From positions 72,762 to 104,761 of the forward strand of contig NZ_AQWN01000001.1 of assembly GCF_000376385.1 (NCBI RefSeq): a DNA stretch of 32,000 nucleotides, written 5' to 3'. The stretch's first letter is position 1, and every line of letters starts with the position of its first letter. The DNA is from Desulfurispora thermophila DSM 16022. GTDB lineage: Bacteria > Bacillota > Desulfotomaculia > Desulfotomaculales > Desulfurisporaceae. A model generated the notes under the pieces. That model was not told the origin of the DNA. It searched no databases and was given only the letters and a program-made list of their open reading frames with translations. Made by a program: the position numbers and the translations under genes. Of this stretch, positions 4,461-22,995 are shown piece by piece.

Positions 4461-4472
4461 TAGTGAGAAAGG

Positions 4473-6411: not shown

Positions 6412-8040
6412 GTGATCAAAATGATGGAATATCCACTTTCCATAAGAAGCATACTTTACCGCGCCAAAACCGTCTTCCCCAAAAAGGAAGTTGTTTCACG
6501 TGATTTTTCAGGGATTTTCAGATATACCTATGGCGATATGTACAAAAGGGTCTGTCAACTGGCAAATGCTCTGAAGAAAATAGGTATTCAGCAAGGAGAA
6601 AGAGTTGCTTCTTTTGCCTGGAACAACCACCGCCACCTGGAATTATATTTTGCTGTGCCCTGCTATGGAGCTGTGTTAAATACCGTGAACATTCGCCTGT
6701 TCCGGGACCAACTTGTTCACTGTATTAATTTTGCCGAAAATAAAGTTCTATTTATCGATGAAGATCTATTACCGCTGATAGAAGACATCAAAGGAGAACT
6801 AAAGACTATTAAAGCCTATGTGGTTATGACAGATAAAGCAGAGTTGCCCCCAACCACCTTATCCCCTGTATATTCCTACGAAGAGTTGATCAAAAATGAG
6901 CCAGACGAATATGATTTCCCTTATCTGGATGAGTGGTCACCGGCCATCATGGCATACACCACTGCAACCACCGGCTTTCCGAAAGGTGTCGTTTATACCC
7001 ACCGGGGCCTTTATATTCACACCCTGTCTATTTTAGTCGGTGAATACGGGGCGAATGAAAGGGATGTCTGCATGCCCATTGTGCCCATGTTTCATGTTAA
7101 CGCCTGGTGCAGGCCATTTGCCGATGCCCTGGTGGGGGCCAAACAGGTCTTGCCGGGGAGCAGGCCGACTCCCAAGGATTTTTGCGAGTTAATCCATCAG
7201 GAAAGGGTAACCTACAGTGCAGGCGTGCCAACCATCTGGATGGGTATTCTGAATCACGTCCTGGAAAATCCGGGCAAATATGATTTCAGCTGTGTGCGGT
7301 GTTTTATTTCCGGTGGAGCCCCCCTGCCGGCCAAACTCACAGAAGATTATGAAAAAAAGCTGGGGATTACGCTCTTTCAGGGCTACGGGCAGACGGAAAC
7401 CACTCCTGTGACGCTGATGTGCTTCCCCAAGAGCTATCTGGAAAATCTGCCTGAACCGGACAAATACCTGCTGCGGGTGAAAACCGGCCTGTTGATGCCC
7501 GGGCTGGAAATGAGGGTGGTAAATGATAAGGGTGAAGAGGTTAAACATGATGGAAAAGAAATGGGTGAACTGCTCTTAAAAGGTCCCTGGATAATCAAAG
7601 AGTACTACAAGGATCCTGAAAAGACCAGGGAAGCGTTTGTGGACGGATGGTTCAGGACCGGCGATATTGTTACTGTTGATGAAGAAGGATATGTTCAGGT
7701 GGTGGATCGAACCAAAGATTTGATTAAGAGCGGCGGTGAGTGGATTTCTTCGGTTGATCTGGAAAACCACCTGATGGGGCACCCTGCCGTGGCGGAGGCG
7801 GCTGTTATCGCCATACCACACGACAAGTGGCAGGAAAGGCCGCTGGCCTGCGTGGTGCTGAAGCCCGATGCCCGGGGTAAAGTGAGCAAGCAAGAATTGC
7901 AGGATTTCCTGCGCGACAAGGTGGCACGCTGGTGGCTGCCCGATGACATTGTTTTCATTAACGAGATTCCCAAGACCAGCGTTGGTAAATTTTCCAAGCG
8001 GGCTTTAAGACAGCTCTACCAGGAGGGGAAACTGCTGTAG
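6412..8040 (+). CDS. AMP-dependent acyl-CoA synthetase/ligase (fatty-acid--CoA ligase type)
   Basis: Carries the adenylate-forming enzyme motifs YTTATTGFPKGV, GYGQTET, TGDIV, KSGGEWIS and PKTSVGKFSKR. The likely start is ATG 6421, after GAGGGG at 6407-6412. Confidence 0.9.
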   Translation: MIKMMEYPLSIRSILYRAKTVFPKKEVVSRDFSGIFRYTYGDMYKRVCQLANALKKIGIQQGERVASFAWNNHRHLELYFAVPCYGAVLNTVNIRLFRDQLVHCINFAENKVLFIDEDLLPLIEDIKGELKTIKAYVVMTDKAELPPTTLSPVYSYEELIKNEPDEYDFPYLDEWSPAIMAYTTATTGFPKGVVYTHRGLYIHTLSILVGEYGANERDVCMPIVPMFHVNAWCRPFADALVGAKQVLPGSRPTPKDFCELIHQERVTYSAGVPTIWMGILNHVLENPGKYDFSCVRCFISGGAPLPAKLTEDYEKKLGITLFQGYGQTETTPVTLMCFPKSYLENLPEPDKYLLRVKTGLLMPGLEMRVVNDKGEEVKHDGKEMGELLLKGPWIIKEYYKDPEKTREAFVDGWFRTGDIVTVDEEGYVQVVDRTKDLIKSGGEWISSVDLENHLMGHPAVAEAAVIAIPHDKWQERPLACVVLKPDARGKVSKQELQDFLRDKVARWWLPDDIVFINEIPKTSVGKFSKRALRQLYQEGKLL

Positions 8041-8104
8041 TTCCCGGGAAGTAACGAAAACAGCCTGTGTGTACAATATTTCCCATATTGAAATAGTAAT
8101 AGTC

Positions 8105-8147
8105 AGCCGCTGCAAGGTGTTTGTAGCGGCTTTTCTTTGTTATACTT
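8105..8147 (+). repeat. copy 2 of the 45-bp terminator/extended -10 module
   Basis: AGCCGCTGCAAGGTGTTTGTAGCGGCTTTTCTTTGTTATACTT. The A->G change in the stem still allows a G-U pair. It lies between the acyl-CoA ligase stop and the rlmD start. Confidence 0.85.
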
Positions 8148-8177
8148 TTAAAAAAAGAGGATGCAGGGCGCAGGGAG

Positions 8178-9593
8178 GTGCGGTGCGTGTATATGTCTCA
8201 GGATAAATGTTATCTGCCGCAAGGGGCTAATAATGAAGAAGTAACACTGCCAATTACCGGCCTGACCCACAGCGCCGAGGGAGTGGGGCGCTTAAACGGT
8301 CTGGCGGTCTTTGTGCCCGGAGCCGTGCCCGGCGATACGGTGCTGGCGCGGCTGGAAGAGCGCAAAAAGAGTTACGCTAGGGCGCGGCTTTTGGAAGTGC
8401 TGCAGGAAGCTCCGGAACGCAGGCCTGCTCCTTGCCCGCACTTTTCCGGCTGTGGCGGTTGCCGCTTGCAGCAGGTGACCTATGCCGAACAATTGCGTCT
8501 GAAAAAGCAGCTGGTGCAGGACAGTTTGGCCCGCCTGGGTGGCCTGGGCGATGTGCCGGTGCATGATGTGGCCGGTATGGACAACCCCTGGCATTACCGC
8601 AACAAGATTACCTTGCATGCGGGGTGGTCCGGTGGGCGGTATGTGCTGGGCCTGTTTACCGAGGGTTCACACGATTTGATTGAGCTTTACCCATTGGGTG
8701 TGGCGGAACCAGCGGCGGGTTGCTTGCTGGTGAATAAGGAGCTCAACCAGGTGGCCCGCACAGTGCAGGAGCTGTTGAACAAATACGCACCAACCGGGAC
8801 AAACGACTTTTTCCACCGGGTGATATTACGTAAAGCTGTGGCCACCGGGCAGATCATGGTGGTGCTGGTCACTGCCGGCGGGGCCTGGGCGGGAGAAAGT
8901 GCTCTGGTGCGGGATCTGCTTTCCCGGCATCCTGCTGTATCGTCCCTGCTGCGCCATGTCCCCGCGCCGGGCTTTGCAAGCGGCGGCGGTTCCTATAAGC
9001 TGCTGGCCGGTAAGGAGTACATTGAGGAAGAGCTGCTGGGCCTGTACTTTCGCATATCTCCCGCCGCCTTTTTCCAGGTGAACCCGGTGCAGACTGCTTA
9101 TTTATATCAAAAAGCGTTGCAGTATGCCGCGCTCACCGGCCGGGAGACGGCGCTGGACGCCTACTGCGGCACCGGGACCATCGCCCTTTTGCTGGCCCGG
9201 CAGGCGGCCCGGGTTTACGGTCTGGAGGTTGTGGCCCAGGCCGTGGTCGACGCCCGGCAGAATGCTCTGCGGAACAACACCGGCAATGTCCGGTTCATGG
9301 AGGGCGCGGTGGAAAAGCTGCTGCCCCGGCTGGCGGCGCGCGGTCTGCGCCCCCACCTCATTGTGCTGGACCCGCCCCGCAGCGGCTGCGGCCGTCCGGC
9401 GCTGCAAGCGGTGGCGGCCATGCAGGTACCGCGGCTGGTGTACGTTTCCTGTGACCCCGGTACCCTGGCTCGCGATCTGGCCTTTTTGAGCCAGTATGCT
9501 TACCGTGCTCTGGAGGTGCAGCCCGTGGACATGTTCCCCTGGACCAGCCACGTGGAGTGCGTGGTATCGCTGAAAAGAAAACACAGCCCATAA
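8178..9593 (+). CDS. rlmD: 23S rRNA (uracil-C5)-methyltransferase, RumA/RlmD type (TRAM + Fe-S cluster + SAM MTase)
   Basis: Has an N-terminal TRAM-like region (GLAVFVPGAVPGDTVLARLEE), Cys cluster CPHFSGCGGCRLQ, SAM motif DAYCGTGTIAL, LDPPRSG and the catalytic VYVSCDPGTLARD. The start is ambiguous between GTG 8178/8187 and ATG 8193. Confidence 0.9.
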   Translation: MRCVYMSQDKCYLPQGANNEEVTLPITGLTHSAEGVGRLNGLAVFVPGAVPGDTVLARLEERKKSYARARLLEVLQEAPERRPAPCPHFSGCGGCRLQQVTYAEQLRLKKQLVQDSLARLGGLGDVPVHDVAGMDNPWHYRNKITLHAGWSGGRYVLGLFTEGSHDLIELYPLGVAEPAAGCLLVNKELNQVARTVQELLNKYAPTGTNDFFHRVILRKAVATGQIMVVLVTAGGAWAGESALVRDLLSRHPAVSSLLRHVPAPGFASGGGSYKLLAGKEYIEEELLGLYFRISPAAFFQVNPVQTAYLYQKALQYAALTGRETALDAYCGTGTIALLLARQAARVYGLEVVAQAVVDARQNALRNNTGNVRFMEGAVEKLLPRLAARGLRPHLIVLDPPRSGCGRPALQAVAAMQVPRLVYVSCDPGTLARDLAFLSQYAYRALEVQPVDMFPWTSHVECVVSLKRKHSP

Positions 9594-9625
9594 AGCCTTG
9601 CGCAGCAAGGCTTTATGGGCTTTTG
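9587..9625 (+). terminator. strong intrinsic terminator of rlmD
   Basis: Perfect 15-bp stem CCCATAAAGCCTTGC (9587-9601) / GCAAGGCTTTATGGG (9605-9619), loop GCA, then CTTTTG. It overlaps the rlmD stop codon. Confidence 0.85.
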
Positions 9626-9689
9626 GGGTGGATAGGGTATGTTTTCGTTGAAGTGGAGGAAACACCGGATAAGAACCTGTATCCAAAGA

Positions 9690-9718
9690 TTGTTAAATGC
9701 TATAGCATCTGCTATAAT
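9690..9718 (+). promoter_or_regulatory. near-consensus sigma-A promoter TTGTTA-17-TATAAT with an embedded 12-bp perfect palindrome ATGCTATAGCAT (9697-9708)
   Basis: The hexamers and the 17-nt spacer were read directly from the sequence. The promoter lies 23 nt upstream of the HTH gene start, and the palindrome fills the spacer. Confidence 0.55.
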
Positions 9719-9740
9719 TTTATGCTGTGGAGGTGTGTTT

Positions 9741-9953
9741 ATGGATTTTAGTGATATTGTTAAAGCCGTTCGAGTATGCTTGGGAATTACACAAGAACAA
9801 CTTGCGCGTGATCTTAATATCAGCTTTTCCACAATTAACAGATGGGAGAACGGCCGCACCATCCCCAGCAGGCTGGCAAAAATGCGTTTTATTGAATACT
9901 GTTTGCAAAGAAATGTTGATAATGCCATCATTGCCGAGTTGAACGACTTATAG
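9741..9953 (+). CDS. 70-aa XRE-family helix-turn-helix regulator (controller/C-protein-like)
   Basis: GGAGGTG lies 6 nt before ATG 9741. The HTH_3 signature is GITQEQLARDLNISFSTINRWENGRTIPS. The longer ORF from 9639 is rejected because its extension is Cys/Ile-rich and has no RBS. Confidence 0.85.
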   Translation: MDFSDIVKAVRVCLGITQEQLARDLNISFSTINRWENGRTIPSRLAKMRFIEYCLQRNVDNAIIAELNDL

Positions 9954-9995
9954 TAATGAAGACGTCATAGAGATTTTTCGGAAAGGGGAAATAAG

Positions 9996-10991
9996 ATGGC
10001 AAGAGGAGATTTGCTCAAGAAGCTGTTCAGCAGCTTCAAGCATGAAGATAAAGAGGGCTTTTACAAGATAGCAAATGAAATAATCGAGGATGAACAGAAG
10101 AAAAATCATGGGATACTGGCGGATGAACTAAGGATGATTTTGTTCAATGGAAACTCTACATATAAGCACACGTTAAGCAAAATCAAGCCGAGTGTTCCCA
10201 AAGACGCGGATAAGGATGTCTCTCTCATAGAGGTTGTTTATCCTGATAAATATTTTGCGGACCTGGTATTGTCACAAGAAAAGAAAGAAGTTCTGGAATC
10301 AATCGTCCGGGAATTCAGCAATTGGGACATTCTTGCCAGCAACGGTGTCATCCCGAGCAGAAAGATACTTTTCTATGGACCGCCCGGTTGCGGAAAGACC
10401 ATAACTGCACATGCAATTGCTTGTGAGTTGGGTATCCCCTTACTGTATGTCAGGTTTGACGCAGTTGTTTCCTCATTCCTTGGAGAAACGGCGAGTAACA
10501 TCCGCAAAGTATTTGATTATGCAAAAAACGATAACTGGGTTATCTTCTTTGATGAGTTTGACGCCATTGGCCGAAGCAGAGATGATCTCTCCGAACATGG
10601 TGAAATTAAAAGGGTAGTAAATACATTCCTGCAGCAGCTCGATAATTTCAAAGGTCGCTCCTTGATTATTGCAGCTACGAATTTTGAAAGATCGTTGGAT
10701 TATGCTTTGTGGCGAAGATTTGACGAAATTTTAAATTTCGAACTGCCGACTTCTGAAGAGAAATTGAAGTTATGTGCTTTGTCCATCAAGCGTTTTAAGG
10801 GACCTGTACAGGTTTTTGAGCAGTATCTTGGTGAAATGGAGAACTTCTCACATTCTGATATTGATAAAATGTGCCAGACTATCATGAAGCAGTGCATCCT
10901 GGATGGACGAAGAATATTTACCAAGCATGATGTTGAATTTGCTGTCAGAAAGCAGTCCGCCATTGTAGCAATGAGAAAAACAAGCTACTAA
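9996..10991 (+). CDS. classic-clade AAA+ ATPase, IetA-like partner of the downstream S8 protease
   Basis: 331 aa with Walker A GPPGCGKT, Walker B VIFFDEFDAIG, sensor-1 IIAATN and Arg-finger region ALWRRFD. It has a ~110-aa N-terminal domain of unknown type. The gene sits 18 nt upstream of the protease gene. Confidence 0.85.
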   Translation: MARGDLLKKLFSSFKHEDKEGFYKIANEIIEDEQKKNHGILADELRMILFNGNSTYKHTLSKIKPSVPKDADKDVSLIEVVYPDKYFADLVLSQEKKEVLESIVREFSNWDILASNGVIPSRKILFYGPPGCGKTITAHAIACELGIPLLYVRFDAVVSSFLGETASNIRKVFDYAKNDNWVIFFDEFDAIGRSRDDLSEHGEIKRVVNTFLQQLDNFKGRSLIIAATNFERSLDYALWRRFDEILNFELPTSEEKLKLCALSIKRFKGPVQVFEQYLGEMENFSHSDIDKMCQTIMKQCILDGRRIFTKHDVEFAVRKQSAIVAMRKTSY

Positions 10992-11009
10992 ACATAGGGA
11001 GGATATGCT

Positions 11010-13538
11010 ATGTTAGAAATAGAGAAGCTGAATCACTTGGAGATTATGAGGGAGGATACGGTTAGACCGTACCGTATTTCTCAAAATCAAAATGCGCCGC
11101 GCCCTCCGGTACGGGAACGTCATATCCATGGCAAGAAACTGGAGAGGGAGATTAAAGCGACCACCGACTCAATAAACAAACAGCGACAGAAACTTGGTAT
11201 TGAACCCGACAAACTGCTCATTATCAGTATGACCAACCAGGCAATGTCGCAAGAACTGTTAAATCGTATGCTTAGCGCCTTTAACCTATCCTTGATAGAG
11301 GAGGTATTCGTAGAAAACGGAGAATTCACAAGAATCCTTGTCCAGTTTCCGGATAGTTATTCTATTTCGGCATTTGACCGTGAAAGAGCGCTTTGGGAAG
11401 CAGATTCAAAGGAACATGCTATTCTCACATATGCGCAAAGGCGTGACATATTTTCTTGTATTGAAAGTATCAGGCAGGTTCAGCGGGAAGACAGAATCGG
11501 TCCAAGACTGCGGCGCAAATTGGAGAGCGGCGAGCCGCTGCCGGATGGCTTTTTTATAATGGATATCGATATCTGGTATAACGGCGATAGGAGACAGATA
11601 ACAGAAATTGAAAGAAAAATAAAGACGGTCCTGGGAACTGTAGGGAGCGCTTTAATCGGTGATTTGTTTGAGACACCGAGTTTGCTGCTTGGCCGTGTTA
11701 AAGTCAACCAGTACAGTCTCGAAGCCCTGTTAAATTGTGATTTGATAGCAACTGTCGATTTTCCAATGGGAACAGTATCCGAGGAGCCTTGTGAACTGTT
11801 TGCTGCAGATTTTGAGCCGATAATAAAAAATAACCTTGATGCAAATGCCCCTTTGGCAACTGTGCTGGATTCCGGGATATTTTCCGGGCATCCTCTTTTA
11901 AATGATGTTATTGTTGCCGAAGAAGATTTTGACCTTGTTGAAGGAACCACCTCGGATAACTGCGGCCATGGTACGGGTGTAGCCGGCATTGTCGTATACG
12001 GAGATTTCCATAAATGCATTGAAACCAAGGTGTTCACACCTTTGGTGCGAATCTGTAATGCCAAGGTTATGCACAATGATGGTAGTAACCATCCAATATT
12101 CAGCCCGGTTAAGCGCCCTGAAAGGATTATAAAAGAGGCAATTGAATATTTCCATCGTGAATATGGCTGCAGAATCTTCAATTTGTCTGCCGGAAATGAG
12201 GATATGGTTTATAACATGGGGCGTCAGATGCCGTGGGCTGAAGTCTTGGACCAATTATCCAGAGAGCTGGATATTGTGATTGTCGTAAGTGCTGGCAATG
12301 TATCGAACCCCGAGATTCATAATTTTATGAGTAGAGAGGAACTAATGGAGAAATGTAGGGACCAGTTGTTTGAACCCGAACACAGATTAATTGATCCAGC
12401 TACAGCTTCCCTTTGTGTGACGGTAGGTTCCATTACCCGCTTCGATGAACCAGAACTGGTTGATGGTAGGAGTGTCAGACTCTCCGCCGGGCCGAAATAC
12501 GCTCCATCTGTATTTACCCGGATTGGCAAGGGTGTAAATAAAGCCATAAAACCTGAACTGGTGGATTATGGAGGGAATTTTGCCATACATCAGGTTATGC
12601 GCGGCGATATAAGATGGGTAAAAAACGACAGAATCCTAATGGAACCTACCTTGAATCATAATTATTCAAAACTCTTCAAGGGGTTTTGCGGTACAAGCTT
12701 TGCGGCTCCACGTGTTACACACCTGGCTGCACGTATTGAACGGGCGCTGGAAGAACAGATTGGGGACAAGCCCTCTGCAAACCTGATGAGGGCGGTGCTG
12801 GTCAACTCAGCGTCTCTTAGCAAAGAAATGATTGAATGGGCGGAACAATCCACAGACCGGCTTTACACAGGAAAAAAGAACCTGAAGCAGGAAAGACGGC
12901 TGCGGCTTTTTGGTTATGGCAGACCAAACGACGCTTGGCTGTATTCAGGCCGTAACCATGTAACTTTGTTTTCTGAAGATGCTCTTAGCCTTCGTACATT
13001 TCATTTATACAAAATACCTGTGCCCATTGAATTCTTAAAGCTGAATTGCGGTAAAAAAATTATCATTAGCATGGCGTATAATCCGGTAACGCGGCTGAGC
13101 CGGAAAGATTATCTTGCCAACAACCTTTGGTTCGAGGTCTATAGGAGAATAGATGAAGATACGCTGGCTAAATACAAAGCCAAGAAGGAAGCGGGGCAGG
13201 ATGGTGATTCAGAGCTATTGCCGGACGAATATAAAGCGGATTTTTCACCGGGGCGTACCGAGGTAGGCAGTTCCACACTTCAGCAGCGTGTCTGGACAAA
13301 GAGCAAATCAGGCGGAAAAGATTTAATATGGAATAAGGATGATCCCTACATATATGTACTGGTTACCGGCAAGGAAAGATACAAGTATGCAGAGCAGGAA
13401 CAGCCACAGCCGTATGCTCTCGCCATCACTTTTTCGTTTGATGGCGAACAGGATATTCAACTATATAATAAATTACAGCAAAAAGTGCGCATCAGGGAGC
13501 GTCAGAGAGAACGTGCCCGTACTCAGGCCAGAATGTAG
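11010..13538 (+). CDS. cytoplasmic subtilisin-family (S8) serine peptidase with large uncharacterised N- and C-terminal regions, IetS-like
   Basis: 842 aa behind GGGAGGA. The triad motifs are intact: ATVLDSG (Asp287, nt 11868), HGTGVAG (His320, nt 11967) and GTSFAAP (Ser563, nt 12696). There is no N-terminal signal peptide or hydrophobic segment. Confidence 0.88.
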   Translation: MLEIEKLNHLEIMREDTVRPYRISQNQNAPRPPVRERHIHGKKLEREIKATTDSINKQRQKLGIEPDKLLIISMTNQAMSQELLNRMLSAFNLSLIEEVFVENGEFTRILVQFPDSYSISAFDRERALWEADSKEHAILTYAQRRDIFSCIESIRQVQREDRIGPRLRRKLESGEPLPDGFFIMDIDIWYNGDRRQITEIERKIKTVLGTVGSALIGDLFETPSLLLGRVKVNQYSLEALLNCDLIATVDFPMGTVSEEPCELFAADFEPIIKNNLDANAPLATVLDSGIFSGHPLLNDVIVAEEDFDLVEGTTSDNCGHGTGVAGIVVYGDFHKCIETKVFTPLVRICNAKVMHNDGSNHPIFSPVKRPERIIKEAIEYFHREYGCRIFNLSAGNEDMVYNMGRQMPWAEVLDQLSRELDIVIVVSAGNVSNPEIHNFMSREELMEKCRDQLFEPEHRLIDPATASLCVTVGSITRFDEPELVDGRSVRLSAGPKYAPSVFTRIGKGVNKAIKPELVDYGGNFAIHQVMRGDIRWVKNDRILMEPTLNHNYSKLFKGFCGTSFAAPRVTHLAARIERALEEQIGDKPSANLMRAVLVNSASLSKEMIEWAEQSTDRLYTGKKNLKQERRLRLFGYGRPNDAWLYSGRNHVTLFSEDALSLRTFHLYKIPVPIEFLKLNCGKKIIISMAYNPVTRLSRKDYLANNLWFEVYRRIDEDTLAKYKAKKEAGQDGDSELLPDEYKADFSPGRTEVGSSTLQQRVWTKSKSGGKDLIWNKDDPYIYVLVTGKERYKYAEQEQPQPYALAITFSFDGEQDIQLYNKLQQKVRIRERQRERARTQARM

Positions 13539-13621
13539 TATGCTATTCCATACAGTGTGCCATAAAAATAAACTGGAGTGTTCAATGATTAAGAATTACC
13601 AAGCATAGAGAGGTGCAGTCA

Positions 13622-15175
13622 ATGCCGTCAATCAATAATGAAATAGAAAAAAAGCTATGGAATGCCGCAGACCAACTGAGAGCGAACTCAAAGCTCAAGG
13701 CTTCCGAGTATTCGGTACCTGTTCTTGGTCTTATTTTCCTTAGATTTGCTGACCAAAGATTCAGTATGGCCGAAAAGGAACTTGCCGAAAAAGCAAGGGC
13801 AGCAGGTTCCAGGCGTGCCATCGGTAAGGCCGACTATCAGGCCAGAGGGGTCATGTACCTGCCGGAACAGGCCAGGTATTCCTATCTCCTGAAGTTACCG
13901 GAAGGTGAGAATATCGGCAAGGCCGTCAACGAGGCCATGAAAGCCATTGAAGCGGAAAATGAAGACCTGAAAGACGTTTTGCCAAAGACTTACACCCGGC
14001 TGGACAATGATACACTGATTGCGCTGCTCAAGATATTCTCCGAAATCCCTATGGATGTGGAAGGGGACGTCTTCGGAAATGTATATGAATATTTCCTCGG
14101 CGAGTTTGCCCGTTCGGAAGGGCAGCGAGGCGGCGAATTCTACACGCCCACCTCGCTGGTTAAGCTCATTGTAGAGGTAATCGAGCCGTACAAAGGACGT
14201 ATCCTGGACCCGGCCTGCGGGTCGGGCGGTATGTTTGTGCAGTCGGCCAGGTTTGTCCAGAATCACAAAAAAAATCCCAGCAGCGAAATATCCATCTACG
14301 GCCAGGAGAAAGTTGCTGAAACCGTAAGGCTATGTAAAATGAACCTGGCAGTGCACGGCCTTTCCGGCGACATCCGGCAGGCCAACACCTATTATGATAA
14401 TGTACATAATTGCATAAACCGCTTTGACTTTGTCATGGCCAATCCCCCATTCAATGTGGATGGGGTAGACAAGGAGAAGATCAAGGACGATCCCAGGTAT
14501 CCCTTCGGCCTGCCTACTACTGATAACGCCAACTATATCTGGATTCAGGAGTTTTACAGTGCTTTAAATGATAAAGGACGGGCCGGTTTCGTCATGGCCA
14601 ACTCGGCCAGCGATGCCAGGGGCTCTGAACTGGAAATAAGAAAAAAGCTCATCCAGGACAAAGTTGTCGATGTGATGATCTCCATCGGGCCAAACTTCTT
14701 TTACACCGTTACTCTGCCCTGTACCCTCTGGTTCTTTGATAAGGGCAAACGGCAGACTGAGCGCGGGAACAAGGTGCTGTTCATTGACGCGCGGAATATC
14801 TACCGCCAGGTGAATCGGGCCCACAGGGAGTTTACGCCGGAGCAGATTGAATTTATCGCCAACATCGTGCGTCTATACCGCGGCCAGCCGGTGGAAACCG
14901 TCAACGGGTCGGAAGAAATGCTCAAGGAGAAGTTTCCCGAAGGCAAGTATGTAGACGTTCCCGGCCTGTGCAAGGTGGCGACCATAAACGAAATCGAGGC
15001 CCAGGGCTGGAGTCTCAACCCCGGCCGGTATGTGGGGGTAGCCCAGAAGGATGAGGAAGACTTCGACTTCATGGAAAGGCTGCAGGAGCTGAATGAGGAG
15101 CTGGAACGGCTTAATGCTGAGGCAGCGGAATTGGAGGAGAGGATAAGGGAGAATGTGGGGCAGTTGTTGAATTAA
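13622..15175 (+). CDS. hsdM: type I restriction-modification system, N6-adenine DNA methyltransferase subunit M
   Basis: Has an HsdM N-domain ([14 protein letters not shown]), EFYTPTSLV, the SAM motif [12 protein letters not shown] and catalytic [16 protein letters not shown] precedes ATG 13622, and the ORF track starts at GTG 13613. Confidence 0.93.
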
Positions 15176-15203
15176 CCTGATAAAATAACGAGAGGTAATA
15201 TTT

Positions 15204-16469
15204 ATGAATAGAAACTTATCGTGGATAAATACCAAGCTAGGGGATGTTCTGGATCAAATATTGGGTGGAGGCACTCCATCAAAATCAGTTGTAGAGTACT
15301 GGGATAATGGCAATATTCCATGGGCTACTGTGAAAGATATGGCGGAAGGCAAGTACGTATTGTACGATACAAAAGACCACATTACTGAAGCAGGTGTTAA
15401 AAATAGTGCAACACGAATTATACCAAAAGGAACTGTAATTATATCAACAAGGATGGGGCTTGGAAGATGTTTCATTAACAAGGTTGATATGGCTATAAAC
15501 CAAGACTTGAAAGCATTAATACCTAAAAAAGATCTGGTTGATACTAAGTTCCTTCTTTGGCTTTATGCAAGTAAAGCACAAACAATAGACAATCTTGGAA
15601 CAGGAACCACCGTAAAAGGTATACGAATTGAGCAGGTAAAAGACATTGATATTAGTTTACCTCCCCTTCCAACCCAACGTAAAATCGCCGCCATCCTCTC
15701 CGCCTACGACGACCTGATTGAAAACAACACCCGCCGCATCAAAATCCTGGAGGAAATGGCGCAGCTCATTTACCGGGAGTGGTTTGTGAAGTTCAGGTTC
15801 CCGGGCCATGAGAAGGTCAGGATGGTGGATTCGGAGCTGGGGCCAATACCTGAGGGGTGGGAAGTTAAACCTATTGGGGAAGTGTTTGATACTTTAGGTG
15901 GAGGTACACCCTCAACCAAGAACCCACAATACTGGGAAAACGGCACAATAACATGGTTTACTCCTAGTGATTTGACATCAGCAAGAACTATGTTTATTAG
16001 TGATTCTGCTAGAAAGATAACCCTAAAAGGTCTTGAGAATAGCTCCGCAAAGATGTTTCCTTCTTATTGTGTTATGATGACAAGTAGAGCTACTATTGGG
16101 GTTACGGCAATAAACACAGTCCCAGCATGTACGAATCAGGGATTTATTGTTTGTATACCTAATGAAATTGCTTCAACTTATCAAATCTATTATTGGATAC
16201 TTACAAACAGAGAAAGAATTGAAGCGATTGCATCAGGAGCAACTTATAAAGAGATAAATAGAACAGAATTTCGTTCTTTTTCTTATGTTATAGCTGACTT
16301 GGCAACACGTAAACGCTTTGAGAGTTTGATTGAGCCTTTGGCTAAACAAATTGAAAACTTAACAAAGAAAAACTCTATCCTCCGCCGCACCCGTGACCTG
16401 CTCCTGCCCAAGCTCATATCTGGCGAACTGGATGTGGAGGACCTGGATATTCCCGTTGGGGGTGATTGA
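15204..16469 (+). CDS. hsdS: type I R-M specificity subunit S (two target-recognition domains + two conserved helical spacers)
   Basis: It has a duplicated architecture. TRD starts are LGGGTPSKSVVEYWDNGNIPW and LGGGTPSTKNPQYWENGTITW. The conserved regions are LPPLPTQRKIAAILSAYDDLIENNTRRIKILEEMAQLIYREWF and ILRRTRDLLLPKLISGELDV. Confidence 0.93.
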   Translation: MNRNLSWINTKLGDVLDQILGGGTPSKSVVEYWDNGNIPWATVKDMAEGKYVLYDTKDHITEAGVKNSATRIIPKGTVIISTRMGLGRCFINKVDMAINQDLKALIPKKDLVDTKFLLWLYASKAQTIDNLGTGTTVKGIRIEQVKDIDISLPPLPTQRKIAAILSAYDDLIENNTRRIKILEEMAQLIYREWFVKFRFPGHEKVRMVDSELGPIPEGWEVKPIGEVFDTLGGGTPSTKNPQYWENGTITWFTPSDLTSARTMFISDSARKITLKGLENSSAKMFPSYCVMMTSRATIGVTAINTVPACTNQGFIVCIPNEIASTYQIYYWILTNRERIEAIASGATYKEINRTEFRSFSYVIADLATRKRFESLIEPLAKQIENLTKKNSILRRTRDLLLPKLISGELDVEDLDIPVGGD

Positions 16470-19400
16470 ATGAACCAGTACTGCGAAGATGCCTTGATTG
16501 AGCAGCCGGCCATCGCCCTATTTCAAGAACTCGGCTGGGAAACCATCAACTGCTTCCACGAAACCCTGGGAACAGCGGGGATCCTCGGACGGGAGACCAC
16601 TGCCGAGGTAGTGCTCACCCGGTACCTCCGTGATGCCCTGGAAAAGCTCAACTCAGGTGTGGACAGTGAGGCCATCAACCTGGCCATCGAGGAAATCGTT
16701 AAAGACCGCAGCAGCCTAAACCCCGTTTATGCCAACCGGGAGGTTTACAAGCTCCTTAAGGACGGTGTCAAGGTTATATATAAGAACGCCGATGGCGAGG
16801 AAACAGACGAAGTAGTGAAGGTCATTGACTGGAACAACCCCGAAAACAATCATTTCCTCCTTGCGTCCCAGCTTTGGATAACGGGCGAAATCTACAAACG
16901 CCGCGCCGACCTTGTCGGCTTTGTCAACGGCATCCCCCTTGTCTTTATCGAGCTAAAGGCCACCCACCGCAGGCTGGAACACGCCTATTACGACAACCTG
17001 CGGGACTATAAGAATACCATACCCCAGTTGTTCTGGTACAACGGCTTCATCATCCTGTCCAACGGCAGTCAGAGCCGCATCGGCAGCATGAGCGCGTCCT
17101 GGGAGCATTTTGCCGAATGGAAGAAAATCAACAGCGAGGGCGAGGAAGGCGTTGTCTCCCTGGAAACCATGATCCGCGGCACCTGCGATAAGGCAAAGCT
17201 ACTGGACATCGTAGAGAACTTCACCCTGTTCAGTGATGCCGGAGGCTCCATGGTCAAACTGGTGGCTAAAAACCACCAGTACATTGGGGTCAACAATGCC
17301 ATCGAAGCAGTGAAAAAGATACGGGAAAATCATGGCCGTCTGGGGGTGTTCTGGCACACTCAGGGTTCGGGCAAGTCCTATTCCATGCTTTTCTTCTGCC
17401 AGAAGATCCTGCGCAAGCTGCCTGGCAACTGGACTTTTGTCATCGTCACTGACCGGGCGGAACTGGATGAGCAGATTTACAAGAACTTTGCCTCAGCCGG
17501 TGCCGTAATCGAGAAAAAGGTCCAGGCTGAAAGTTGCCAGCACTTAAAAGAGCTGTTGGCAGAGGATCACCGCATGGTGTTCACCCTCATCCAGAAGTTT
17601 CAGAGTGAAGACGGGGGTAAGTACCCGAAAATAACGGACAGGGACGACATCATCGTGCTGGTGGACGAAGCCCACCGCAGCCAGTATGACACCCTTGCCG
17701 CCAATATGCGCTCTGCCATGCCCAATGCTTCTTTCATCGCTTTTACCGGGACACCTCTTATGGCAGGAGAGGAGAAAACCAGGGAAGTATTCGGCGATTA
17801 TGTTTCCATCTATAACTTCCGCCAGTCCATTGAGGATCGGGCCACCGTTCCCCTTTATTATGAGAACCGCATCCCGGAACTACAGCTTATCAATGAAAAC
17901 CTCAACGATGACATCCAGGACATAATCGACAATGCTGATTTGAGCGAGGAAGCGGAGAAGAAGCTGGAACGGGAATTTGCCCGGGAGTATCACCTGATTA
18001 CCCGTGACGACCGGCTGGAAACCATTGCCGAGGATATCGTCAAACATTTCATGAGCCGTGGAGAAATGGGCAAGGCCATGGTTGTGAGCATCGACAGGTA
18101 TACTGCCGTCAAGATGTATGACAAGGTTCGGAAATATTGGCAAAAGTATATGGAGGAGCTGAGCAAGCAGCTAGCCAAATGTTATCCTCAAGAAGCAGCA
18201 GAAATAAAAAAGAAACTGGATTACATGCGGGAAACCGATATGGCGGTGGTCATATCTTCCGGGCAGAATGAGGTTGAAGCCTTTCAAAAGAAGGGATTGG
18301 ATATCCTGCCCCACCGCAAACGCATGGTCACCGAAGACCTGGATAAAAAGTTCAAAGACCCCAATGATCCTTTTAGAATCGTGTTTGTCTGTGCCATGTG
18401 GCTGACAGGCTTTGACGCTCCTGCGGTCAATACGATTTATCTGGACAAGCCCATGAAGAACCATACCCTGATGCAGACAATCGCCAGAGCGAACCGGGTA
18501 TTCAAGGATAAAACCTGCGGTACTATAGTCGACTATATCGGCGTATTCCGTAACCTTCAAAAAGCACTTGCCATATACGCTACCCCTGTAGCGGGCGGCT
18601 CAGTGGATACACCGGTGAAAGACAAGGCGGCACTGATCGATGAACTTAAAAAAGTTATTGCTGAAACAACTGCTTTCTGCAATGAAAAAGGCATTGACGT
18701 AGGTAGGCTCCTTAACACATCAGGTCTTGAACTTGTCGGCCTTTTGGACGATGCTGTGGAGCGCCTGGTGGTAAATGACGAAACCAAGCAGCGGTTTCAA
18801 TCCTTGGCGGGGAATATAGTTAAACTCTATAAAGCTATTTTGCCTGACCCCAAAGCTTCTGAATTTGCCAGTCAGAAGAACCTTTTCACCTGTATTTCTG
18901 ACAAAATTCGGGCACTGACCCCACCGGCCGACATCTCTGAAATTATGGTTGATATTGAGAAAGTTCTTGATCAGTCTATTGCCAGTGAAGGGTATATCAT
19001 CCACGAAGCCCCCGCTGGGTACAATACAAAAGTTGATTTGAGCCAGATTGATTTTGAAGCTTTGCGAAAGTTCTTCGACAAGTCCAAGAAGCATACGGAA
19101 GTCGAAAAACTGAAAGGTTTAATCAACGCCAAATTAAACAAGCTCGTACGCCTTAATAAAAGTAGGATTGATTTTGCCGAGAGGTTCCAGAAACTTATTG
19201 ACGAGTACAATAGCGGCGCCCTTAACGTGGAATTGATGTTTGATAAACTGCTTGCCTTCGCCAAGGAGCTCACCGAAGAAGAAAAGCGTGGCATGGCGGA
19301 ACAGCTTACGGAGGAAGAACTGGCCCTGTTTGATATCCTTACCAAACCTGAACCTAAATTGACAGCTAAAGATAAGGCTAAAGTGAAGAAAGTAGTCAGG

Positions 19401-19622
19401 GAACTGTTGGATACGCTCAAGAGGGAGAAACTGGTACTTGACTGGCGAAAACGCCAGCAGACCAGGGCAGCGGTTCAGATTACGATACAGGATTCCCTTG
19501 ACCGGGAACTGCCGAGGGCATATACCCCAGAAATATTCAACCGAAAGTGTGATTTGGTGTACCAGCACATTTATGATTGTTATTATGGTGCTGGGCAGAG
19601 TGTATACAGCCGGGCGGGTTAG
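16470..19622 (+). CDS. hsdR: type I R-M restriction/translocase subunit R
   Basis: The ATG directly abuts the hsdS TGA. It has an N-terminal PD-(D/E)xK motif (ADLVGFVNGIPLVFIELK) and SF2 motifs HTQGSGKS, LVDEAHRSQ, FTGTPL and QTIARANR. The protein is 1050 aa. Confidence 0.93.
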   Translation: MNQYCEDALIEQPAIALFQELGWETINCFHETLGTAGILGRETTAEVVLTRYLRDALEKLNSGVDSEAINLAIEEIVKDRSSLNPVYANREVYKLLKDGVKVIYKNADGEETDEVVKVIDWNNPENNHFLLASQLWITGEIYKRRADLVGFVNGIPLVFIELKATHRRLEHAYYDNLRDYKNTIPQLFWYNGFIILSNGSQSRIGSMSASWEHFAEWKKINSEGEEGVVSLETMIRGTCDKAKLLDIVENFTLFSDAGGSMVKLVAKNHQYIGVNNAIEAVKKIRENHGRLGVFWHTQGSGKSYSMLFFCQKILRKLPGNWTFVIVTDRAELDEQIYKNFASAGAVIEKKVQAESCQHLKELLAEDHRMVFTLIQKFQSEDGGKYPKITDRDDIIVLVDEAHRSQYDTLAANMRSAMPNASFIAFTGTPLMAGEEKTREVFGDYVSIYNFRQSIEDRATVPLYYENRIPELQLINENLNDDIQDIIDNADLSEEAEKKLEREFAREYHLITRDDRLETIAEDIVKHFMSRGEMGKAMVVSIDRYTAVKMYDKVRKYWQKYMEELSKQLAKCYPQEAAEIKKKLDYMRETDMAVVISSGQNEVEAFQKKGLDILPHRKRMVTEDLDKKFKDPNDPFRIVFVCAMWLTGFDAPAVNTIYLDKPMKNHTLMQTIARANRVFKDKTCGTIVDYIGVFRNLQKALAIYATPVAGGSVDTPVKDKAALIDELKKVIAETTAFCNEKGIDVGRLLNTSGLELVGLLDDAVERLVVNDETKQRFQSLAGNIVKLYKAILPDPKASEFASQKNLFTCISDKIRALTPPADISEIMVDIEKVLDQSIASEGYIIHEAPAGYNTKVDLSQIDFEALRKFFDKSKKHTEVEKLKGLINAKLNKLVRLNKSRIDFAERFQKLIDEYNSGALNVELMFDKLLAFAKELTEEEKRGMAEQLTEEELALFDILTKPEPKLTAKDKAKVKKVVRELLDTLKREKLVLDWRKRQQTRAAVQITIQDSLDRELPRAYTPEIFNRKCDLVYQHIYDCYYGAGQSVYSRAG

Positions 19623-19676
19623 AGGCGGAGTACTGGAAAAAACGGTAAATCATTACGTGGCTCCCAAGGCCCGGAT

Positions 19677-19708
19677 GGGAAACGAGTCCATTTGGTTGCC
19701 CTTTTTTA
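19677..19708 (+). terminator. probable terminator after hsdR
   Basis: Imperfect stem GGGAAAC / GGTTGCCC followed by TTTTTT (19702-19707). It is the first hairpin plus T-tract I can find downstream of the 9690 promoter. Confidence 0.4.
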
Positions 19709-19823: not shown

Positions 19824-20111
19824 ATGCCACATATCAGACCGGTTTCGGATTTGCGGAATAATTTTGCTGATATATCCAGGATTGTTCATGAGACCCAAGA
19901 GCCAGTATTTCTGACCAAGAATGGTTATGGCGATATGGTTGTAATGAGCATTGAAACTTATGAACGAAAACTCTTTGCAAGCGAAATCTATTTTAAGCTT
20001 AAGGAAGCCGAGCTTGAAGCAAGGTCCACTGATCAACGCTTTTCCCATGCAGAAGTTTTTTCCAATTTGAAGTCAAGGCTCGCAAACGAGGCAGATGGAG
20101 ATAATGCATGA
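19824..20111 (+). CDS. Phd/YefM-family type II antitoxin
   Basis: The N-terminus IRPVSDLRNNFADISRIVHETQEPVFLTKNGYGDMVVMSIETYE is the canonical Phd/YefM fold signature. The gene overlaps the downstream toxin gene. Confidence 0.88.
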   Translation: MPHIRPVSDLRNNFADISRIVHETQEPVFLTKNGYGDMVVMSIETYERKLFASEIYFKLKEAELEARSTDQRFSHAEVFSNLKSRLANEADGDNA

Positions 20112-20409
20112 GGTAAAATACCTGCCTTTGGCACAAAGGGATTTAATAAATATTATCGACTATATTACTGATACCCTCAAAGCGCCAAAGGCTGCAATGG
20201 ACCTGGTTGATGCCCTGGATGCTTCCATATCAAGACTCGCACAGTTCCCATATTCAGGCAGGTTATATCAACCTGTACAGCCGCTTCAATCTGAATATAG
20301 GGTTTTACCAGTAAAAAACTATTTGGTGTTCTATGTGGTTAACCAGCATGAAGTAGAAATACACAGGATCCTTTATGCAAAGATGAATATTGAAAAGTTT
20401 GTAAAATAA
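20095..20409 (+). CDS. ParE/RelE-superfamily type II toxin
   Basis: ~100 aa with AQRDLINIIDYI, FPYSGR and YRVLPVKNYLVFYVV...VEIHRILYAKMN. The start is ATG 20095 or 20104; the latter overlaps the antitoxin stop as ATGCATGA. Confidence 0.82.
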   Translation: MEIMHEVKYLPLAQRDLINIIDYITDTLKAPKAAMDLVDALDASISRLAQFPYSGRLYQPVQPLQSEYRVLPVKNYLVFYVVNQHEVEIHRILYAKMNIEKFVK

Positions 20410-20492: not shown

Positions 20493-20574
20493 AAAATAAA
20501 GAGAAGATAGCTTCTGGCAGTCTGTTTCGGAGGGTGTTTGCTCGTAACAGTGCGGTGCTGAAGGGGGAATAAAT

Positions 20575-20628
20575 GTAAGCGTAAACAGCCCCCTCCTTGC
20601 CAGCAAGGTAGGGGCTGTTTACGCTTAC
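20575..20628. mobile_element. 54-bp IS66-type terminal-inverted-repeat-only mini element (MITE-like/solo IR pair)
   Basis: GTAAGCGTAAACAGCCCC ...18 nt... GGGGCTGTTTACGCTTAC has perfect 18-bp arms. The arm matches the right end of the IS66 remnant at 24141-24162 (GTGGGGGCTGTTTGACGCTTAC), and the 5'-GTAAGCG terminus is typical of IS66-family ends. Confidence 0.55.
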
Positions 20629-20727
20629 GTTTATGATGAAAGAGGTCTGGTGTTTATATAAATTTGCGAAACGCATGCATATAGCAATACAATTAGGTAT
20701 AATATATGCAGAAGGAGGCGTTTTGAA

Positions 20728-21033
20728 ATGGCAAGAACCGCTAATATATTTGCCCGCGTTGAACCTGAAATTAAAGAACAGGCTGAAAAGGTGCTTGAGC
20801 AGCTTGGCATTCCCATGTCCAACGCAATCGGGCTTTTTCTGCGTCAGGTTGTGCTTCAGCGAGGAATCCCGTTTGATTTGAAGCTTCCTCAAAATAAGCC
20901 TTTGTCTATTGAAGAGCTCGGCGAGGAGCAGTTTTATGAGGAAATTGAGAAAGGCATGGCTGATTTAAACAGCGGAAAGGTTGTTCCGGCCCAAAAAATA
21001 TTTGACAGGATAAGCAAGGATTACGGGCTATGA
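20728..21033 (+). CDS. RelB/DinJ-family type II antitoxin
   Basis: AGGAGG lies 9 nt upstream. The N-terminal ribbon-helix-helix signature is NIFARVEPEIKEQAEKVLEQLGIPMSNAIGLFLRQVVLQRGIPFDL. A 4-nt ATGA overlap joins it to the toxin gene. Confidence 0.88.
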   Translation: MARTANIFARVEPEIKEQAEKVLEQLGIPMSNAIGLFLRQVVLQRGIPFDLKLPQNKPLSIEELGEEQFYEEIEKGMADLNSGKVVPAQKIFDRISKDYGL

Positions 21034-21344
21034 ACACGTGGAAAGTGGTTTATACAGAACAGGCGGAAAACGATCTGCGCGGGATTTACGAATACATCGC
21101 TTTCTCGCTGCTTGAGCCTGAAATTGCAAAGAGGCAGACGAAACGGATTATTGAAGCTACGGCAAAACTAAATGAAATGCCATTCCGCTGCCGGTTGTAT
21201 GAAAAAGAACCGTGGCGCAGCAAGGGGCTTCGGGTTTTACCGGTTGATAATTACCTGGTGTTTTATCTGCCCGTTGAAGAGCGGCAAACTGTTGCAATAA
21301 TCCGTATCATGTACGGCGGGCGAAATATTGATAAGCATCTTTAA
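21030..21344 (+). CDS. ParE/RelE-superfamily type II toxin (paralogue of 20095-20409)
   Basis: Carries AENDLRGIYEYI, MPFRCR and LRVLPVDNYLVFYLP...VAIIRIMYGGRNI, the same motif order as toxin 1. Confidence 0.82.
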   Translation: MNTWKVVYTEQAENDLRGIYEYIAFSLLEPEIAKRQTKRIIEATAKLNEMPFRCRLYEKEPWRSKGLRVLPVDNYLVFYLPVEERQTVAIIRIMYGGRNIDKHL

Positions 21345-21633: not shown

Positions 21634-22695
21634 TTAATGCACAATACTTTTTTGCAGTTTCAGCACTTCTTCCAGTGACAGGCCGGTGATTTCGCTGACC
21701 AGTTGCGGATCTAGTCCTTTGCGCAGGGCAGCCAGGGCGTTTTCCCGTGCTTTTTTAAGCTCGCCCTGAGCCATACCCTCCTGCCGGGCATTATTGATAG
21801 TTTCCCCCAATATCCTCTCCACGTTGGTAACCATCCGATCACTCTCCTCCGGGCCAAGCTTCTCAATGGCTGCAGCAAGCTCCTGCTGTTTTTCCGGTGA
21901 CAATTGCGGTGCAAATATTTTCAGACAGAAGGTCTTAAACCGCTGAAAATCCTCAGGCGTCATTTTCCGGGTAATGCGCAACAGGCGGCGCAGGGTTTTG
22001 ATGATCTGCGGCCAGTCCCGGCTTTTTTCCAGCATGAATACGGCTGCCAGCAGGTTGGCCATGTGCATTAGCTCCCGGTCTTTGTAGCTGTGTACGCTGA
22101 TTACTTCGTAGTGAAAATTGAGCAGGTAGTCGGCAAACTGTTCACTGGCGGCCAGGATGTCCTGAAAGAATGTGGCTGCCGTCCAGCGTGGCTTTCCATT
22201 GTACAGCACCAGAGGGATGATGGCCGGCAGGCGAAATTCCTTGCTCTCCCGCTCCTTCGGCGGCGTGTTATTAAACACCTCCCGCCAGATTTCCACCATG
22301 TACAAAAGCAGGCGAAAGGGCATCAGGTAGTCCACTGTGGACTGCAGTTCCAGCAGGACGTAAAAGATTACATCACCTTCAGTGCTTTTCATGCGGTAGA
22401 CTATGTCGGCTTCTTTGTCGGCAAATTCCTGGGTGATGTAGCTTTTGTCCACCAGGATGAGGGCCTGCAGATCAATATTGTGCACCCAGGGGGCCGGGAC
22501 AAAACTGCGCAAAAGCTGCAGGAAGGTGTCTTTGTTTTTGAGCAGATATTTGTAGCCCTTGTCGTGCGGTTGGTGGGTTGGTGGACGGGGTGGATCATCC
22601 GGCGGCACTCCTTCTGTTTTGATTATACCACGCGCTCCGGGACATGAGAAGTTGCCTGGAAAACCAAAAAAGCTCCGGCTTGAAGAGGCTGACAT
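21634..22695 (-). CDS. Rpn-family recombination-promoting nuclease / putative transposase (PD-(D/E)xK, YhgA-like)
   Basis: Has HDKGYKYLLKNKDTFLQLLRSFV near the N-terminus, a nuclease core ADIVYRM...VIFYVLLELQSTVD, and a C-terminal HTH-like tail RKGLDPQLVSEITGLSLEEV. The first ~45 codons (Ser/Pro-rich) may be an over-extension, so the start is uncertain. Confidence 0.8.
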   Translation of the reverse strand: MSASSSRSFFGFPGNFSCPGARGIIKTEGVPPDDPPRPPTHQPHDKGYKYLLKNKDTFLQLLRSFVPAPWVHNIDLQALILVDKSYITQEFADKEADIVYRMKSTEGDVIFYVLLELQSTVDYLMPFRLLLYMVEIWREVFNNTPPKERESKEFRLPAIIPLVLYNGKPRWTAATFFQDILAASEQFADYLLNFHYEVISVHSYKDRELMHMANLLAAVFMLEKSRDWPQIIKTLRRLLRITRKMTPEDFQRFKTFCLKIFAPQLSPEKQQELAAAIEKLGPEESDRMVTNVERILGETINNARQEGMAQGELKKARENALAALRKGLDPQLVSEITGLSLEEVLKLQKSIVH

Positions 22696-22817
22696 AAATT
22701 GTAGCGATTACAGCTACCGGTAAAGGGAATATAAGCGTCAAATATTCCCCACCTGGCAATCGCCTTTACCCTATAAGATAATCAACCTCAGAACACCAAA
22801 CTGAGGAGGGTTATCCA

Positions 22818-22994
22818 ATGACACAGGCCGAACGGGAAAAACTCTGGGAAGCCCGCATAGCCGACTACCGGGCCAGCGGGTAGAGTGTAAGAGAATGGTG
22901 CGCAAACAATACCATCAGACCAGATCGTCTCTGGTACTGGCTGCGCAAATACAAACCGTTACAGGAAGCAAATAATTACTTCCCCCGGTCTAAA
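22818..22994 (+). pseudogene. IS66 orf1 (tnpA-like) remnant with an in-frame TAG
   Basis: MTQAEREKLWEARIADYRASG*SVREWCANNTIRPDRLWYWLRKYKP, with the stop at 22881-22883 inside an otherwise open HTH-type IS66 TnpA frame. Confidence 0.65.
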
Positions 22995-22995
22995 G

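Follow-up and report, generated by a model that had tools for sequence, protein, structure and literature searches.

How did an antiphage protease cassette come to stand at the head of a type I restriction-modification (R-M) operon, and does its position there mean that the two work together? The question is raised by six co-directional genes in a 32,000-nucleotide (nt) stretch of the Desulfurispora thermophila DSM 16022 genome, which we call the window (contig NZ_AQWN01000001.1, positions 72,762 to 104,761, forward strand). They encode a helix-turn-helix (HTH) regulator, an AAA+ ATPase, an S8 subtilase and the HsdM, HsdS and HsdR subunits of a type I system. A pair of an AAA-type ATPase and an S8 peptidase was reportedly presented by Gao et al. 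in 2020 as the antiphage system IetAS. The original prediction, made from the letters of the window, saw here an IetAS-like pair that is not free-standing, and offered two ideas: (a) the pair is a back-up effector that acts when restriction fails, or (b) it is a protease dedicated to the control of HsdR. We find that the locus is made of two separable modules joined at the hsdM leader. Hence, we suggest a layered defence that arose through module fusion, in which an HTH-autoregulated IetAS module was put into the hsdM leader, hsdMSR is probably read through from its promoter, and no dedicated biochemical coupling between the two is needed. We hold this reading to be right with a probability of roughly 0.55.

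A divergent clade of IetAS

The ATPase and the protease were compared with the PADLOC profiles for IetA and IetS, and the predicted kinship was borne out by full-length matches. IetA matches PDLC02196 with an E value of 5.7e-91 (residues 7-317 against profile positions 7-318 of 374), and IetS matches PDLC02198 with an E value of 9.7e-109 (residues 7-841 against positions 4-794 of 795), non-catalytic regions included. With the NCBIfam models the scores are 242.5 bits for IteA_antiphage, under the cut-off of 510, and 107.6 bits for IteS_antiphage, under the cut-off of 900. Judged by these profile scores, the window pair is a divergent clade that lies inside the broader PADLOC definition and is no equivalog of the E. 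coli prototype. The ietA gene is directly 5' of ietS on the same strand with a gap of 18 nt, and this order is kept in all loci that have both genes.

The catalytic elements are present as predicted. The translation of ietA holds GPPGCGKT, VIFFDEFD, IIAATN and ALWRRFD (Walker A, Walker B, sensor 1 and arginine finger); the nearest solved structures of IetA are p97/Cdc48 (6e-59), with the pore-loop residues FLG opposite WFG of the p97 D2 domain. In IetS the triad of D287, H320 and S563, as well as the oxyanion-hole N391, is invariant in an alignment of 15 homologues. The protease was also predicted to lack a signal peptide, and reading of its sequence revealed no N-terminal hydrophobic segment. 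Sequence and profile searches of the Protein Data Bank (PDB) recovered the subtilisin core of IetS only, with intracellular subtilisins as the best matches, and gave no matches for its N- and C-terminal regions; Pfam Y4kK_N and Y4kK_2nd are annotated on IetS homologues in precomputed records. The AlphaFold2 model of IetS from the 15-sequence alignment has a mean predicted local distance difference test score (pLDDT) of 45 and a predicted template-modelling score (pTM) of 0.47, and an exact-sequence look-up found no identical IetS on record.

IetAS has been described as a toxin-antitoxin system that stabilises plasmids, IetS being the toxin and IetA its antitoxin, and also as a defence against phages that requires the protease activity of IetS and whose mechanism is given as unknown (PMC13069673). 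The papers found still call it so in 2026.

Two modules joined at the hsdM leader

The boundaries of DNA homology were drawn from pairwise comparison of loci, with about 140 related loci in the whole survey; they are cited by number where they must be told apart. The same six genes stand at the same site in the complete genome sequence of Thermincola potens JR, with IetS 89% and HsdS 36% identical. They recur with different flanks on the metagenome contig L055, which shares DNA 9639-19636 with the window. Nucleotide identity of the six-gene block to T. potens and L055 is 88-90%. Distant loci have the first part in common only: L056, L057 and L026 share 9686/9690 to about 13513-13525, which covers the promoter, the HTH gene, ietA and ietS, and Cohnella laeviribosi shares 9983-13551 only, that is ietA and ietS. 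The closest relatives of the window HsdR (94, 88, 85 and 83% identical) belong to stand-alone hsdMSR operons without IetAS, and homology to such operons begins at 13601-13619, the hsdM ribosome-binding site (RBS) TAGAGAGGTGCAG.CAATG.

One such relative is L058, where HsdR and HsdM are each 94% identical to those of the window and IetAS is absent. Window positions 9586-9666, a hairpin and about 45 nt after it, correspond to L058 6962-7044, directly 5' of the L058 hsdM gene. The window is the L058-like arrangement with a 3.9-kb HTH-IetAS module (about 9667-13600) in place of 74 nt of hsdM leader. At the other end of the module, IetAS homology stops at about 13513-13551, the stretch of about 13552-13600 is lineage-specific, and the hsdM RBS region runs from 13601. 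The operon-like junction proposed earlier is supported: of the sequence that originally preceded hsdM, only about 20 nt, the RBS, is left in the window lineage. As far as DNA comparison tells, the promoter, HTH gene, ietA and ietS (9686-13538) are a mobile unit, separable from hsdMSR.

The hsdMSR module itself is complete, with intact HsdM, HsdS (two target-recognition domains, TRDs) and HsdR encoded in one operon and matched over their full length by Pfam and PADLOC profiles; HsdR scores 538 bits with TIGR00348, over the cut-off of 284.55. The TRDs of HsdS are swapped relative to L001, L055 and L058 in otherwise about 90% identical cassettes, and hsdS DNA aligns to these three only at about 15647-15891 and at the 3' end. 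Such exchange of TRDs is typical of the way in which type I systems shuffle their specificity. In L055 the hsdM gene (6610-8162) is split into products of 338 and 193 amino acids (aa) by an apparent frameshift, and HTH, ietA and ietS are intact.

A conserved operator built into the module promoter

In 75 loci (57 distinct sequences) the promoter of the module has an operator-promoter TGCTATAGCA-NN-TGCTATAAT built into it. Upstream of the HTH gene these loci have TTG(nnn), TGCTATAGCA, NN and TGCTATA(A/T)T at fixed spacing. The operator positions are each kept in at least 50 of the 57 sequences, most of them in 54-57; across the whole core nearly all positions reach 52 of 57 or more, and the flanking positions are random; the TTG is kept in 54-55 and the -10 positions in 52-56 of the 57. 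The HTH proteins of these loci are 43-100% identical, and HTH homologues of 43-93% identity are found directly 5' of ietA in most loci of the Firmicutes clade. The palindrome TGCTATAGCA fills the spacer between -35 and -10, and a third half-site, TGCTA, overlaps the -10. This conserved layout is presumed to be that of an autorepressed promoter, with TGCTATAGCA as the binding site of the HTH autorepressor.

The palindrome occurs as a single copy at 9698-9707, and no second copy was found in the window, at hsdM included. From this single operator, absent at hsdM, it follows that the HTH goes with the IetAS genes and is no hsd-specific C protein. Thus, the controller-like HTH of the original prediction keeps its regulatory character, with a conserved operator in its own promoter, but it belongs to IetAS and not to the R-M system. 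The role of an hsd C protein was considered and rejected, as the HTH accompanies ietA-ietS with or without R-M genes, which follow in only about 10% of loci. A PDB search with the HTH gave generic Xre, antitoxin and phage-repressor proteins, and a specific match to C proteins was not found among them. Three proteobacterial plasmid loci with IetAS that were inspected have neither the HTH nor the operator-promoter.

The HTH-operator cassette is itself portable, because the same HTH and operator drive another operon in L093 (IMG/VR contig, 3263-8349): an HTH 53% identical to that of the window and identical TGCTATAGCA...TGCTATAAT are followed there by a methyltransferase/GHKL-ATPase operon. A scan of viral contigs for the operator motif gave 85 stretches, of which 80 were screened; the HTH was present in five, three with IetAS and two without, and the remaining matches are presumably due to chance. 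Within L093, the HTH gene overlaps the start of the DNA methyltransferase gene by 4 nt, and genes for a 769-aa double GHKL-ATPase and a 455-aa unknown protein follow. A serine recombinase gene adjoins this HTH operon, which looks R-M-like under the same controller.

Directly after the ietS stop codon of the window, at 13539-13555, lies GTATGCTATTCCATAC, in which a TGCTAT half-site forms part of a 5-bp inverted repeat. It has two mismatches to the operator palindrome and is kept in the three cassette copies, and the ietAS homology of Cohnella reaches 13551; the resemblance may be due to chance.

Transcription of the six genes

The six open reading frames (ORFs) are intact and have the coordinates and spacing given in the original prediction, with gaps of 42, 18, 83, 28 and 0 nt (Table 1). 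The starts of the HTH gene (ATG 9741) and of hsdM (ATG 13622) follow the conserved RBS and start codons, not the longer mechanical ORFs. The proposed near-consensus promoter, TTGTTA-17-TATAAT at 9690-9718 with a TG-extended -10 and 10 of 12 matches, proved to be the top promoter-like site on the + strand between 8.5 and 21 kb, and the consensus scan found no promoter-like sites on the + strand from 11881 to 13979. The claim that no terminator precedes the hairpin after hsdR also stands: no stable structure was found in the 83-nt ietS-hsdM spacer (fold z +1.4), and the few weak matches to a terminator that the scan lists within ietS and hsdM are no more than chance would give (12 against a shuffle mean of 13.7). 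The hairpin past hsdR (19668-19700, followed by six U) is outside the DNA common to the other cassette copies, as homology to L001, L055 and L058 stops at 19636-19653.

Table 1. Features of the HTH-IetAS and hsdMSR modules, in window coordinates
Feature	Position	Strand	Description
Upstream hairpin	9585-9621	+	17-bp perfect pairing and T-run; -31.3 kcal/mol, z -5.65
Promoter	9690-9718	+	-35 TTGTTA at 9690-9695, 17-nt spacer, extended -10 TGCTATAAT at 9710-9718
Putative operator	9698-9707	no strand	Perfect palindrome TGCTATAGCA inside the promoter spacer
HTH gene	9741-9953	+	70-aa Xre-family regulator; Pfam HTH_3 2.5e-11; conserved as a third gene in this clade of IetAS
ietA	9996-10991	+	Single-module classical-clade AAA+ ATPase; Pfam AAA 2.2e-34
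ietS	11010-13538	+	842-aa cytoplasmic S8 subtilase; Peptidase_S8 1.6e-29; family-specific N- and C-terminal regions
ietS-hsdM junction	13539-13621	+	83-nt spacer
hsdM	13622-15175	+	Type I methyltransferase; Pfam HsdM_N and N6_Mtase 2.1e-89; PADLOC MTase_I 1.5e-234
hsdS	15204-16469	+	Specificity subunit, two target-recognition domains; Pfam Methylase_S, two stretches
hsdR	16470-19622	+	Restriction/translocase subunit; Pfam HSDR_N, SWI2_SNF2, T1R_D3-like, T1RH-like_C
3' hairpin and U6	19668-19707	+	12 pairs with a bulge at 19668-19700; likely intrinsic terminator

The native hsdM promoter region is gone; therefore read-through from the HTH promoter would be the simplest route to hsdMSR expression and is plausible. 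The missing promoter hit in the ietS-hsdM spacer adds little to this, because the consensus scan finds no promoter before stand-alone hsdM genes either, though one must exist there.

It may also be that hsdMSR is transcribed from a promoter of its own that went unrecognised, located within 13552-13621 or towards the 3' terminus of ietS, and that the two modules are mere neighbours in a defence island. The blindness of the consensus scan to stand-alone hsdM promoters speaks for this possibility, as do the mosaic island, with two Phd/RelB-ParE pairs and transposase genes, and the unlike GC content of the modules (41-45% against 47-54%). Against it are the loss of all but roughly 20 nt of what originally preceded hsdM, the spacer without a terminator, and the gaps of 31-34 nt in other lineages, which offer scant room for a promoter. 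Moreover, the six genes stay together in L055 despite the different flank. On balance, we regard plain adjacency as rather unlikely.

Restriction genes beside IetAS

The neighbourhoods of homologues were surveyed in 51 species-representative genome loci and 74 metagenome loci. In the genomes, R-M-type genes are adjacent and co-directional at 8 of the 51 loci. The classes seen beside IetAS include type I, HsdR-like, bacteriophage exclusion (BREX)-like (DUF6079/PglX-like), N6/N4 methyltransferase, McrBC and PLD-ResIII-DUF3427. Type I genes begin 31-135 nt 3' of IetS in 5 of the 47 metagenome loci with enough downstream flank. When all 89 loci whose downstream flank reaches 1.5 kb or more are taken together, a type I operon follows IetS immediately in eight; these are raw counts, not corrected for phylogeny. 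Type I is the largest class of downstream neighbour, any other family being seen at most three times among the 89. The eight fusions represent at least four independent lineages, between which HsdM is 25-45% identical, and one of the lineages has the order hsdR-hsdM-hsdS. HsdR-like genes are directly upstream of ietA in L025 and L042, which is not so in the window.

About 90% of IetAS loci have no adjacent R-M genes. Their other neighbours include genes for a caspase-like peptidase, a KilA-N protein, a UvrD/PD-(D/E)XK protein together with a methyltransferase, and housekeeping proteins. Three plasmid-borne IetAS pairs, one on a Ti plasmid included, were inspected, and no R-M neighbour was seen. 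The description 'not free-standing' is correct for the narrow lineage of the window and fails elsewhere, the nearest hsdMSR operons being without IetAS. An argument from asymmetry, with R-M genes found only downstream in the Firmicutes clade, was set aside, as the events number four and a distant clade has upstream R-M genes too.

Several other arrangements were met in the survey. In L026, an independent fusion of IetAS to type I genes, a HEPN AbiU2 gene lies between hsdS and hsdR (12505-13407), a second abortive-infection-type gene stacked in the same operon. In L046 (3039-19848) IetA-IetS is part of a BREX-like cluster whose genes all run in one direction, about 30-90 nt apart, and encode a DUF6079 protein (1289 aa), a HATPase_c_4 protein, IetAS, an N6_N4 methyltransferase of 925 aa and an AAA protein of 1513 aa. 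In L006, from Desulforadius tongensis, a gene for a 524-aa caspase-like protein (Peptidase_C14, 4888-6462) starts 3 nt past the ietS stop, and its product is possibly a second protease effector of the same operon. A PLD-ResIII-DUF3427 helicase-nuclease gene is co-directional and 3' of ietS in two IetS lineages (L027 12772-15747; L187 10641-14115, where a MazG-like gene precedes it) and may be another recurrent partner of IetAS.

Does the recurrence of type I genes point to a restriction guard? PrrC is an anticodon nuclease physically masked by EcoprrI, a guard that acts when restriction fails (PMC12707154), and the concept is established for PARIS as well. By analogy, IetAS would stay latent while HsdMSR or another superfamily 2 (SF2) restriction translocase works, and an anti-restriction block would free IetS and abort the infection. 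We note that idea (a) of the original prediction is thus known in concept from PrrC/EcoprrI, and its claim to novelty falls. The type I genes placed closely and co-directionally after IetS in at least four IetS lineages, their rank as the largest downstream class and the further adjoining restriction partners (BREX-like, McrBC, N6/N4 methyltransferases, HsdR-like helicases and PLD-ResIII-DUF3427) are all in line with a guard. So are the ietHAS variant, which needs an SNF2 helicase whose mutation leads to toxicity (PMC13069673), and the non-random co-localisation of ietAS with type III R-M in E. coli (bioRxiv 10.1101/2022.08.21.504612). However, IetAS is not obligately embedded in a type I locus: such genes stand directly downstream of it in 8 of 89 loci; the great majority of IetAS loci, and the three plasmid-borne pairs, have no R-M gene beside them. 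Cloned by itself, ietAS is reportedly active in E. coli (PMC13069673; bioRxiv 10.1101/2022.08.21.504612). The partners are mechanistically mixed, as clustering in defence islands would give, and the counts of neighbours are raw ones. A guard at this locus seems to us rather unlikely, on a par with plain adjacency.

In a broader form of the same idea, IetAS would guard ATP-dependent restriction translocases in general: IetA would monitor SF2 motors (HsdR, IetH-like) and free IetS when anti-restriction factors stall them. On this view, coupling would have left its genomic footprint in the recurrent, independent fusions of HTH-IetAS to different type I families and to operons of BREX-like and other R-M systems, and the shared HTH promoter would fix the proportion of guard to guarded. 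We consider this wider proposal quite unlikely.

Idea (b), in which IetA would unfold and IetS degrade HsdR to delay restriction at establishment or after DNA damage, as a portable substitute for ClpXP, has in its favour the unfoldase and protease genes 5' of hsdMSR under one controller-like promoter and the precedent of HsdR degradation by ClpXP in types IA and IB, but it is contradicted by the distribution of a module overwhelmingly without type I genes, by the closest hsdMSR operons, which cope without IetAS, by the intact IetAS beside the split hsdM of L055, and by the report that IetS is a toxin held by IetA and that the pair defends alone (PMC13069673), so that we judge it highly improbable.

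A proposed layered defence through module fusion

Taken together, the observations lead us to the following course of events at the locus.

Assembly: Module 1 (9686-13538) is a three-gene variant of the IetAS toxin-antitoxin/abortive-infection system, and Module 2 (13601-19622) an ordinary type I R-M operon, hsdMSR. In the ancestor of the lineage, Module 1 came to lie in the hsdM leader and replaced all native upstream sequence but the RBS of about 20 nt.

Resting state: The Xre-type repressor most likely binds TGCTATAGCA and the adjacent TGCTA half-site, between and over its own -35 and -10. This repression would hold expression of the module low and steady. By analogy with the published system, IetA would restrain IetS. 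The hsdMSR genes are most likely transcribed, at least in part, from the HTH-controlled promoter, with the transcript ending at the hairpin past hsdR.

Infection: Again by published analogy, infection would release the IetS protease, and the infected cell or the phage would be stopped. The link between the modules would consist of transcription and co-inheritance, giving a layered defence in a defence island.

Three points weigh against the layered-defence proposal. The evidence that the repressor would bind the palindrome is the conservation of the site. The hsdMSR genes could have a promoter that is weak or departs from the consensus, either in the lineage-specific stretch 13552-13600 or towards the 3' terminus of ietS. 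Finally, the position of type I genes after IetS in at least four independent lineages, as the commonest immediate neighbour, hints at more than neutral juxtaposition.

Island context

The six-gene block is within a low-GC island of about 42-50% GC, against a background of 55-60%. The hairpin at 9585-9621 terminates an upstream TRAM/U5 RNA methyltransferase gene and is the left edge of the island. The element is repeated in L058 (5761-5879 and 6962-7044), where its copies flank an HNH-like gene; one copy is present in T. potens, and a half-copy with two mismatches lies at 29846-29860 of the window. It may be a repetitive extragenic palindromic (REP)-like or terminator element that marks a hotspot of cargo insertion before hsdM. 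A search for repeats around the island found no direct repeats or attachment (att)-like sites bounding the IetAS insertion.

Two antitoxin-ParE pairs follow the locus in tandem, the first Phd-ParE (19824-20409) and the second RelB-ParE (20728-21344), with a 32-nt inverted repeat (91% complementary, 20569-20634) between them. The Phd pair is also present in L058, the relative without IetAS. The right edge of the island (21634-24104) holds a minus-strand YhgA-like (Transposase_31) gene and a fragment of an IS66-family transposase gene. Another low-GC patch (about 41% GC) lies at 5000-6500 and includes a 191-aa ORF (5669-6244) without a Pfam match.

Significance

The statistical co-localisation of IetAS with R-M and the component families are already known. 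In the literature searched we met neither the clade of HTH, ietA and ietS with a definable operator nor its recurrent joining, on the promoter-proximal side, to type I operons. The HTH is a conserved third component in a large Firmicutes clade of IetAS, and TGCTATAGCA-NN-TGCTATAAT provides a handle for regulation studies and genome annotation. HTH-IetAS has repeatedly become the promoter-proximal part of type I operons, and for the window lineage the site of joining can be placed to nearly the exact base. A functional linkage would extend the guard idea of the PrrC type to a protease/unfoldase pair and point toward the trigger of IetAS; without one, the locus would still be a clean example of defence-island assembly through promoter capture.

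Comparison with known systems

The window pair shares with the IetAS prototype (the plasmid-stabilising toxin-antitoxin of pTiC58; Gao et al. 2020) both proteins, their order, tight linkage, intact motifs and a cytoplasmic protease. Unlike the prototype, the window clade adds the 70-aa HTH with its conserved operator-promoter, and in the window lineage hsdMSR is fused downstream. In ietHAS (Liu-DS4) IetAS is likewise in one operon with an SF2/SNF2-type ATPase, and the window HsdR has SWI2_SNF2. However, ietHAS has a stand-alone gene for a DrmD-like IetH helicase 5' of ietA, where the window has the 70-aa HTH, and the SNF2-type protein of the window is a full HsdR encoded 2.9 kb downstream, inside a complete hsdMSR operon.

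The arrangement of PrrC/EcoprrI, as well as RloC and PARIS, is similar in that an abortive-infection-type effector is in or beside a type I operon, probably on a common transcript. In contrast to PrrC, an anticodon nuclease that EcoprrI masks, IetAS is a protease/ATPase pair found mostly without R-M. C proteins of R-M systems resemble the window HTH in being small Xre-type proteins whose gene opens the operon and whose own promoter is overlapped by a palindromic operator. In L093 the HTH and operator stand straight before a DNA methyltransferase operon, a further resemblance. In most loci, however, the genes under the window-type HTH are ietA and ietS and not that of a restriction endonuclease.

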